The notes under the pieces are model-generated. The model did no database searches. It worked only from the letters and a program-made list of their open reading frames with translations, and was not told the origin of the DNA. DNA of 64,000 bases from Escherichia coli (GTDB taxonomy: Bacteria; Pseudomonadota; Gammaproteobacteria; Enterobacterales; Enterobacteriaceae): NCBI RefSeq assembly GCF_051903065.1, contig NZ_CP178438.1. One strand, written 5' to 3'. The position numbers were made by a program, and so were the translations under genes. Of the stretch, positions 6,264-7,580 are shown piece by piece. The stretch's first letter is position 1, and every line of letters starts with the position of its first letter.

Positions 6264-7580
6264 ATGCGCAAGTATTATTATTTTTTTATATATTCCGTAA
6301 TATCTTTTAATTCCATAGCAGCAGATCCACAAGTGAAACAAGATGATGGGGTGGGTAGTGATTCTTTTTTTATTACAAGTTCTTCTAACACACCAACCAA
6401 GAAAGAAAATGTACAGGGGACTAATTCTGTTGCTATTGGCAATAATGTTCAGATTAAGAAGGGAGATGGTTCAGATCTCAAAAATATGAGTGACGGTTCA
6501 GTAGCTATTGGAAATGGTGCCTCAACTATGTATGAAGGAACTACTGCTGTGGGTAAAGGGGCAAAAGCAACTGGCTGGCGCTCAACAGCAATTGGAGTGG
6601 GTGCGACCACAAATGCTGAATCAGCTACAGCCATGGGTAATGGTGCAAATGCCAATAACTGGGGGGCTAGCGCATACGGGACTATCGCAAAAGCAACGGG
6701 TACAAACTCAACAGCAATAGGTAATGCAGCTCAAAGTTCAGGAGAACTTTCTACAGCATTAGGTGTTTCATCACAAAGTACTGGGCATTATTCAGCAGCG
6801 CTAGGTACTTTATCTAAGGCTGAAGGATATGGTTCTGTTGCTACCGGCCTTCATGCTAATGCAAAATCTCAATATGGTATTGCACTCGGTTCATATTCAG
6901 TCGCTGATCGTGCCGCACTTGATGATACAATGTTGGGAGCTATTTCTGTAGGCGGTACAGCTAATGACACTCTAGGGTACAGGACACGTCAAATTATTAA
7001 CCTTGCAGCAGGGACAGAAGATAATGATGCCGTGAATGTATCACAACTTAAGAAAGAGGCAGGAGAAAGAGTTGCGGGCGATGCAGCTACCTTAACAGCA
7101 GCTAAGAATTACAGCGATGCTGGTAATAAACAAACGCTGAAAACAGCTAATGAATATAGCGACGCTGGCGATGCGAAAACATTACAGACAGCAAAGAATT
7201 ATAGTGACACCGGAGACGAGAGAACACTGAACAGTGCTAATAATTATACCAATACTGCCGTTAAGAAAAGCAATGCCAATACGCTTTATCAGGCAAATCA
7301 GTATACTAATCAGAAGTTCTCTGAATTGCGTAAAGTAGTTGATGAAAATCGTAAACGTTCGGATGCCGGCATTGCCGGAGCTATGGCTATGACGGCGATT
7401 GCACCTGTCCCCTATAAAGATTATTCATTCGGTATGGCTGCAGGTGGCTATCGCGATCAAGGTGCAATTGCGGCAGGGATTAATATCAAAACAAGTGAAA
7501 GCTCGTTAATGAAAGTAAATGCATCTTGGGACAGCCAGAATGGTGGTGGTATTGCGGCTGGTTTTAATGTCGGATGGTAA
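6264..7580 (+). CDS. Trimeric autotransporter adhesin (YadA-like)
   Basis: Low-GC ORF; Ala/Gly/Thr-rich head repeats, 14-15-aa stalk repeats (KNYSDAGNKQTLKTA / NEYSDAGDAKTLQTA / KNYSDTGDERTLNSA) and a YadA-type C-terminal anchor (...GIAGAMAMTAIAPVP...AAGFNVGW). ATG at 6264 preferred over 6258 because of the AGGGGA RBS. Confidence 0.8.
   Translation: MRKYYYFFIYSVISFNSIAADPQVKQDDGVGSDSFFITSSSNTPTKKENVQGTNSVAIGNNVQIKKGDGSDLKNMSDGSVAIGNGASTMYEGTTAVGKGAKATGWRSTAIGVGATTNAESATAMGNGANANNWGASAYGTIAKATGTNSTAIGNAAQSSGELSTALGVSSQSTGHYSAALGTLSKAEGYGSVATGLHANAKSQYGIALGSYSVADRAALDDTMLGAISVGGTANDTLGYRTRQIINLAAGTEDNDAVNVSQLKKEAGERVAGDAATLTAAKNYSDAGNKQTLKTANEYSDAGDAKTLQTAKNYSDTGDERTLNSANNYTNTAVKKSNANTLYQANQYTNQKFSELRKVVDENRKRSDAGIAGAMAMTAIAPVPYKDYSFGMAAGGYRDQGAIAAGINIKTSESSLMKVNASWDSQNGGGIAAGFNVGW

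Follow-up and report, generated by a model that had tools for sequence, protein, structure and literature searches.

Pentadecad stalk repeats in a YadA-like Escherichia coli adhesin and the near-constancy of their number

Repeats had been predicted in the stalk of a trimeric autotransporter encoded within a 64,000-nucleotide stretch of Escherichia coli DNA (contig NZ_CP178438.1; hereafter the window), with the expectation that they would vary in number by recombination and change the length and antigenicity of the adhesin. The repeats are present in the predicted region (7080-7270), and by the features of their sequence we identify them as pentadecads, the units from which YadA-like adhesins typically build their right-handed coiled-coil stalk. 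Their number in this gene is almost fixed and is not a source of variation. It is very likely, in our assessment, that they serve as a fixed-length structural spacer in a right-handed stalk, with the number of units stable and the variation of the protein residing in the head. This reading builds on the observed periodicity of the units, their motif and position, homology to the YadA stalk crystal structure 3H7X, the near-invariant unit number, and the place of variation within the protein. The feature is an ordinary one, a known structural repeat in an uncharacterized member of a known adhesin family, and it carries little weight beyond the annotation; the repeat can now be named precisely as the pentadecads of a right-handed stalk of a trimeric autotransporter adhesin (TAA).

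Domain organization and the pentadecad stalk

The adhesin gene occupies positions 6258-7580 of the window (+ strand) as an intact open reading frame of 440 residues. RefSeq places the start at 6264, which gives a protein of 438 residues (WP_066019388.1), and applies the label 'YadA-like family protein' in E. coli genomes whose copy of the gene is 99.8-100% identical. Pfam reports six YadA_head stretches, a YadA_stalk/neck domain at residues 245-268, and a YadA_anchor domain at residues 386-440, all above the gathering cut-offs. The domains follow the order head, neck, stalk, and anchor, with the passenger parts N-terminal to the anchor. This order and the C-terminal anchor place the protein in the trimeric autotransporter class (type Vc), and both the domains and the position of the repeats agree with their original assignment to the stalk of a YadA-like member of that class. 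The protein is not YadA proper, as its NF033478 score is 117.4 bits against a cut-off of 750. A literature search on trimeric autotransporters, pheU, and the YadA-like context found no specific name for this E. coli adhesin. A consensus scan picked out, as a pattern match, a terminator-like hairpin 80 nt past the stop codon (7660-7685, + strand), in which a T run follows a stem of 11 bp.

The N-terminus of the protein, MIMRKYYYFFIYSVISFNSIAA (6258-6323, + strand), is probably a signal peptide; read from the sequence, it contains the hydrophobic stretch MRKYYYFFIYSVISFNSIAA and ends in AA. The head (residues 49-244, 6402-6989, + strand) is predicted to consist of YadA-type left-handed β-roll repeats. 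Among its six Pfam stretches, the best covers residues 161-185, and a PDB sequence search matches it to the heads of BpaC and YadA (1P9H). The neck (residues 245-268, RQIINLAAGTEDNDAVNVSQLKK, 6990-7061, + strand) corresponds to profile positions 1-24 of PF05662, aligns to its counterpart in the YadA head crystal 1P9H, and is without variation in the protein alignment of close variants (alignment A1). At the opposite end of the protein, the YadA-like β-barrel membrane anchor (residues 386-440, 7413-7577, + strand) scores 28.8 bits against a PF03895 cut-off of 22.7. Residues 352-440 match the YadA anchor 2LME in the PDB, and residues 276-440 align to the C-terminal 166 positions of the NCBIfam profile YadA_autotrans.

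Four units of exactly 15 residues, each bearing a YxD or YxN motif, make up residues 273-332 (7074-7253, + strand; AGDAATLTAAKNYSD, AGNKQTLKTANEYSD, AGDAKTLQTAKNYSD, and TGDERTLNSANNYTN). They are followed by a 19-residue unit, TAVKKSNANTLYQANQYTN (residues 333-351, 7254-7310, + strand), with a YTN motif at its end. The original prediction gave a unit length of 14-15 residues, of which the value of 15 stands and that of 14 is found in no unit. Its reading frame yields three full units, KNYSDAGNKQTLKTA, NEYSDAGDAKTLQTA, and KNYSDTGDERTLNSA (residues 283-327, 7104-7238), which agree at 8-9 of 15 residues, compared with 7-9 of 15 across the array. What it took for a fourth unit, beginning NNYTNTAVKK, does not form a 15-mer in that frame and runs into the 19-residue unit. 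Under BLOSUM62, the self-similarity of the stalk reaches 127 at lag 15, against -16 ± 13 in shuffled sequences (z = 11), and is likewise high at lag 30; none of 5000 shuffles attained the lag-15 score at any lag from 3 to 30.

According to the daTAA classification (Szczesny & Lupas 2008; PMC2373917), right-handed TAA stalks are built from 15-residue pentadecads with 3.75 residues per turn (other periodicities of 3.7-3.83 being allowed), carry a YxD motif five residues ahead of the unit end, and are positioned solely between the last neck and the anchor. The adhesin displays all three of these features. Its stalk contains three YSD and two YTN motifs at spacings of 15, 15, 15, and 19 residues; the 19-residue unit, distributed over 5 turns, corresponds to 3.8 residues per turn; and the repeats (residues 273-351) lie between the only neck and the anchor. 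The adhesin departs from the daTAA description in sequence detail alone: the x of YxD, usually Thr, is Ser in three units, and two motifs read YTN instead of YTD.

The YadA stalk crystal 3H7X gives a gapless alignment (E = 2.4e-7) with residues 321-380, a segment that starts at the end of unit 4, and the YadA stalk entries 3LT7, 3LT6, and 3H7Z match it as well in the PDB sequence search. PMC3539135 attributes these stalk fragments to Alvarez et al. 2010, a paper whose title refers to a transition from right- to left-handed supercoiling. In the alignment to 3H7X, the 19-residue unit falls on the transition segment that is conserved in the YadA stalk. The segment that follows it, QKFSELRKVVDENRKRSDAGIAGAMAMTAIAPVP (residues 352-385, 7311-7412, + strand), aligns to both 3H7X and the anchor entry 2LME as a membrane-proximal coiled coil with a linker that enters the barrel. 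Right-handed supercoiling thereby gains indirect support for residues 321-380, and for residues 273-320 it is suggested by the similarity of the repeats.

Fourier analysis of the stalk gives a hydrophobic power of 0.2 at a period of 3.5, 26 at 3.75, and 38 at 3.8. The near-zero value at 3.5 excludes a heptad periodicity; the strongest hydrophobic harmonic falls at a period of 3.0 and not at 3.75, and we take the Fourier result as supportive only. An AlphaFold2 monomer model, built from a 12-sequence alignment, folds residues 81-190 of the head into regular strands with block-mean pLDDT values of 85-95. The model draws residues 261-376 as a helix at pLDDT 30-45 with a break at residues 300-321, and the anchor as three long strands at similarly low confidence (pLDDT 30-45). 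Low values in the stalk and anchor are expected because an obligate trimer was modeled as a monomer.

In the arrangement we favor, the adhesin would be a trimeric lollipop in which the pentadecads make up the upper, right-handed part of the stalk. The four pentadecads and the 19-residue unit would lead, through the conserved transition, to a left-handed coiled coil, which would then enter the 12-stranded trimeric β-barrel of the anchor. By analogy with YadA, we infer a trimeric right-handed supercoil for the upstream units and a stalk that would act as a rigid spacer of fixed length, holding the β-roll head at a distance from the outer membrane and LPS. On the same analogy, about 117 stalk residues at about 0.15 nm per helical residue would span about 17 nm.

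Variation in the head and conservation of the stalk

The distribution of substitutions was assessed in 116 distinct close protein variants, which represent about 1160 contigs by hand sum. Substituted alignment cells are most frequent in the region preceding the head (3.5%) and in the head (1.44%). The pentadecads follow with 0.13%, and the neck, anchor, and lower stalk have 0.04%, 0.05%, and 0.03%, respectively, so that the substitution density of the head is about 11 times that of the repeats. Because the repeat region ranks with the most conserved parts of the protein, it is not the seat of antigenic variation, and the idea that the repeats change antigenicity is not supported for this gene.

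Larger differences between alleles also map to the head. In strain MIN10, the main difference at the DNA level is a head patch of 76% identity at gene nucleotides 401-500. The head of variant P0117 is 56-63% identical and switches to 98-100% identity near gene nucleotides 650-700, while in variant P0118 and on plasmid NZ_CP134806 unrelated heads are joined at the neck (gene nucleotides ~775-800) to the common cassette of neck, stalk, and anchor. This cassette is 91-100% identical in DNA per 100-nt bin, and the heads of P0117, P0118, and NZ_CP134806 are 35-63% identical. The mosaic alleles correspond to positions 6258-7061 of the window, compared with 6001-7335 of locus L006, 136-1347 of L007, and 3100-4550 of L001. 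The position of the breakpoints, near the end of the head and the neck (gene nucleotides ~650-800), suggests that heads are replaced by recombination. From the substitution densities and the mosaic alleles, the stalk emerges as the constant part of the adhesin and the head as the exchanged part. Variation would then come from substitutions in the head and from the exchange of entire heads on a neck-stalk-anchor cassette that is itself conserved. For typing or vaccine work on this adhesin, diversity should be sought in the head, and the stalk-anchor cassette offers a conserved target.

Variant P0115 (416 residues) carries an in-frame deletion of 24 head residues between two SVAIGN motifs (residues 57-80, window 6426-6497). 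The deletion sites have just short DNA matches in common (GCTATTGG), and the variant shows that rare in-register deletions occur between head repeats too.

The pentadecads might additionally be ligand-binding modules for complement regulators or matrix proteins, a role that would be compatible with that of a spacer and that has parallels in the reported binding of factor H by the YadA stalk and of fibronectin by BadA; PMC9602544 attributes fibronectin binding to the repetitive motifs of the BadA stalk. The low substitution of the repeat region and its identity across alleles with different heads would fit such a role. However, the neck, lower stalk, and anchor are equally or more conserved (0.03-0.05% substituted cells), so conservation is a property of the whole cassette and not of the repeats. 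Moreover, the conserved unit residues (G-D, T-L, A, and Y-x-D) constitute a family-wide structural motif that is found in unrelated TAAs. We judge a binding role for the units, in addition to that of a spacer, to be improbable.

A wider proposal built on the mosaic alleles is speculative and, on balance, rather improbable. The cassette with its pentadecads could be a conserved export and display module for several E. coli adhesin alleles, whose heads would be swapped at the invariant neck; conservation of the pentadecads could reflect a homology handle or a host-factor binding site; and the gene could be the chromosomal founder of an uncharacterized Saa-related family that occurs mainly in poultry, livestock, and human isolates.

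Unit number and DNA-level similarity of the repeats

Of 5426 complete E. coli genomes, 32 carry the adhesin gene; 31 of these contain at least 80% of the gene and 30 contain it at full length. The full-length copies measure 1323 nt, apart from two that measure 1322 and 1320 nt. In each of the 31 genomes with at least 80% coverage, the last 581 nt of the gene are 99.8-100% identical and without indel. The C-terminal segment of a plasmid-borne relative also matches at 550 of 550 nt with no indel. Every unit is kept in 115 of the 116 close protein variants. Closely related strains thus do not display copy-number polymorphism, with all 31 genomes and all but one of the variants in agreement.

The exception is P0112 (423 residues; Logan contig SRR6111502_416, 2 samples), which lacks exactly one unit. 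Both the protein alignment A1 and the alignment of the contig to the window place the missing 45 nt at 7119-7163 (+ strand), with the crossover inside a 5-nt microhomology, GCTGG, at which 7119-7123 matches 7164-7168. Logan contigs are made by a k-mer assembler. Such an assembler could not have collapsed the units because they have no long exact word in common; with shared in-register words of at most 8 nt and the contig present in two samples, an assembly artefact is unlikely. The unit number is therefore nearly but not strictly invariant among the close variants, strict invariance in all homologs being the outcome that the original prediction had named as its refutation.

Unit numbers range more widely in the extended family. 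Among 152 representatives at 50% identity, which are distant homologs, 0-10 in-register units were counted with a regular expression that may undercount, and the identical motif recurs at the identical 15-residue spacing in many homologs. Near-identical units form arrays of 10 in P0163 and 7 in P0182, and such arrays have evidently expanded recently. A difference of one unit separates the sister proteins P0119 and P0120, whose DNA contains a 45-nt repeat with 91% matches. Variation in repeat number, as had been predicted, is accordingly seen across the wider family but not in this gene.

The units of the adhesin gene itself are considerably diverged in DNA. Nucleotide identity at lag 45 is 61.5%, against 21-39% at neighboring lags, and the protein repeat with random synonymous codons would give 60.4 ± 2.7%. 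Codons are identical at 20 of the 49 residues that are identical between units (21.2 expected), and exact in-register matches between units reach 8 nt at most. The description of the repeats as existing at the DNA level is true in a trivial sense, as their identity is no higher than the protein repeat imposes. Tandem Repeats Finder (TRF) reported no repeat at positions 5000-10000 with a minimum score of 30, and a search with 6-nt seeds recovered solely a family of 18-nt repeats, spaced 45 nt apart and 72-78% identical. Near-identical tandem DNA units, the hallmark sought in a variable-number repeat, are absent from the gene. Given the 61.5% identity, the 8-nt longest run, and the randomized synonymous sites, the units have diverged too far for homologous recombination or slippage to act on them.

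The gene saa from pO113-4 served as a positive control for variable-number repeats. Its repeat spans 37 residues (111 nt) in 3.8 copies with 98% nucleotide identity and a TRF score of 823, in contrast to the 15-residue units of the adhesin with their fixed number. The copy number of the saa repeat is reported to vary between strains, with five variants (PMC4060028). A repeat at the protein level does not by itself imply variability in copy number; the contrast with saa points to DNA-level identity between units as the predictor.

These data bear directly on the proposal that the array is a variable-number tandem repeat, in which recombination or slippage at the DNA level alters stalk length and antigenicity as in Saa, BadA, and UspA. 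The precise in-register loss of a unit in P0112, the one-unit difference within the sister lineage of P0119 and P0120, the relatives with 7-10 near-identical units, and the behavior of saa are all compatible with it, as is a review that describes TAAs as repetitive, 'leading to facile recombination' (PMC3539135). In this gene, however, the divergence of the units and the negative TRF result, the absence of stalk-anchor indels from all 31 genomes, the retention of every unit in 115 of 116 variants, and the roughly 11-fold lower substitution of the repeats relative to the head all run against it. The variable-number reading is largely refuted for this gene, and we hold it to be very improbable.

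According to the spacer reading, the units would instead be old duplications whose likeness is maintained by the packing constraint of the coiled coil and not by DNA-level homogenization. With their likeness upheld by protein constraint in this way, the unit number would remain stable in this gene, shifting only when microhomology mediates a rare, illegitimate, in-register deletion; one allele of this kind is known. A chance origin of the repeat in the residue bias of TAA stalks, which are rich in A, T, N, D, and K, might be hinted at by the agreement of units at just 7-9 of 15 residues. Such an origin has practically no likelihood, since no composition-preserving shuffle among 5000 reproduced it (z = 11) and the 15-residue motif recurs in many homologs.

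Relatives and genomic setting

The adhesin has in common with YadA of Yersinia enterocolitica and Y. pseudotuberculosis a β-roll head, a neck, a right-handed stalk of 15-residue YxD repeats, the transition segment, and an anchor with four strands per monomer, the head and neck aligning to 1P9H and the anchor to 2LME. Identity between the two over the stalk and anchor is 30-34%. The adhesin has four pentadecads and one 19-mer, whereas YadA is described as having ten 15-residue repeats (PMC3539135); its gene is chromosomal, on a genomic island, whereas that of YadA is located on the pYV plasmid.

The closest named relative of the stalk and anchor is Saa, the STEC autoagglutinating adhesin of plasmid pO113, with 43% identity over 169 residues. 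Both are E. coli TAAs on mobile DNA, and they share the GDAxTLxSANxYTN unit and a NRKRSDAGIAGAMAMTAI junction that is homologous to the segment at residues 352-385. The N-terminal passenger of Saa looks unrelated to that of the adhesin, judged by reading the translation. The Eib immunoglobulin-binding TAAs are also E. coli proteins of similar size with a YadA-like head, and the head of EibD (2XQH) matches residues 71-183 of the adhesin (E = 5e-7). The PDB sequence searches found no match between the EibD stalk and the repeat region. Eib genes are prophage-borne, in contrast to the island location of the adhesin gene next to tRNA-Phe in strain E89.

In E89, this island adjoins tRNA-Phe downstream of dsbD and contains an integrase, copies of IS1, IS110, and IS3, and a CP4-type module that carries antirestriction, RadC, and YeeU/CbtA genes. 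The window is 100% identical to strain GDSC2BY4G over the 19.4 kb downstream of the adhesin gene. On the upstream side, an IS1 copy with insA/insB frames (5390-6087, - strand) lies divergent to the adhesin gene and ends about 170 nt before its start, an arrangement that is identical in E89 and GDSC2BY4G. No sigma-70-like match was found in the gap between IS1 and the adhesin gene.

Directly downstream of the adhesin gene lies an IS110-family transposase pseudogene (~8010-9030, - strand), for which the RefSeq annotation of an identical sequence records a frameshift and an internal stop. Beyond it, at ~9300-12800, a group II intron interrupts a transposase gene of the IS3 family. The intron contains a reverse transcriptase/maturase open reading frame (10691-12214), annotated as ltrA in the identical sequence of GDSC2BY4G, and the IS3 element is intact at the corresponding site in E89.

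The stalk-anchor region also has relatives on mobile DNA outside the chromosome. On NZ_CP134806, an IncF/IncI1 conjugative plasmid (locus L001, 2501-4550), a relative with the same stalk-anchor cassette lies just downstream of cdiA (contact-dependent inhibition). This relative is probably disrupted, because it is annotated as two separate coding sequences, an 'adhesin' of 678 nt and a 'YadA-like' of 255 nt. In the Stx1c phage PQ600364.1, a stalk-anchor query matches positions 45882-46223 at 58% identity beneath a 'terminase large subunit' feature, and this match may represent an unannotated TAA gene. The same query matches the Klebsiella and Salmonella jumbo phages OR228459.1, PP191103.1, and MK268344.1 at 37% identity, where the matching genes are annotated as tail or hypothetical proteins.

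Further along the window, at ~24900-31900, lies a CP4-type module that was delimited through locus L008 (25315-32275) and encodes a GTPase, a DUF932 protein, an antirestriction protein, RadC/JAB, and a YeeU/CbtA type IV toxin-antitoxin system. In E89, the island with the CP4-type module abuts tRNA-Phe and the integrase.
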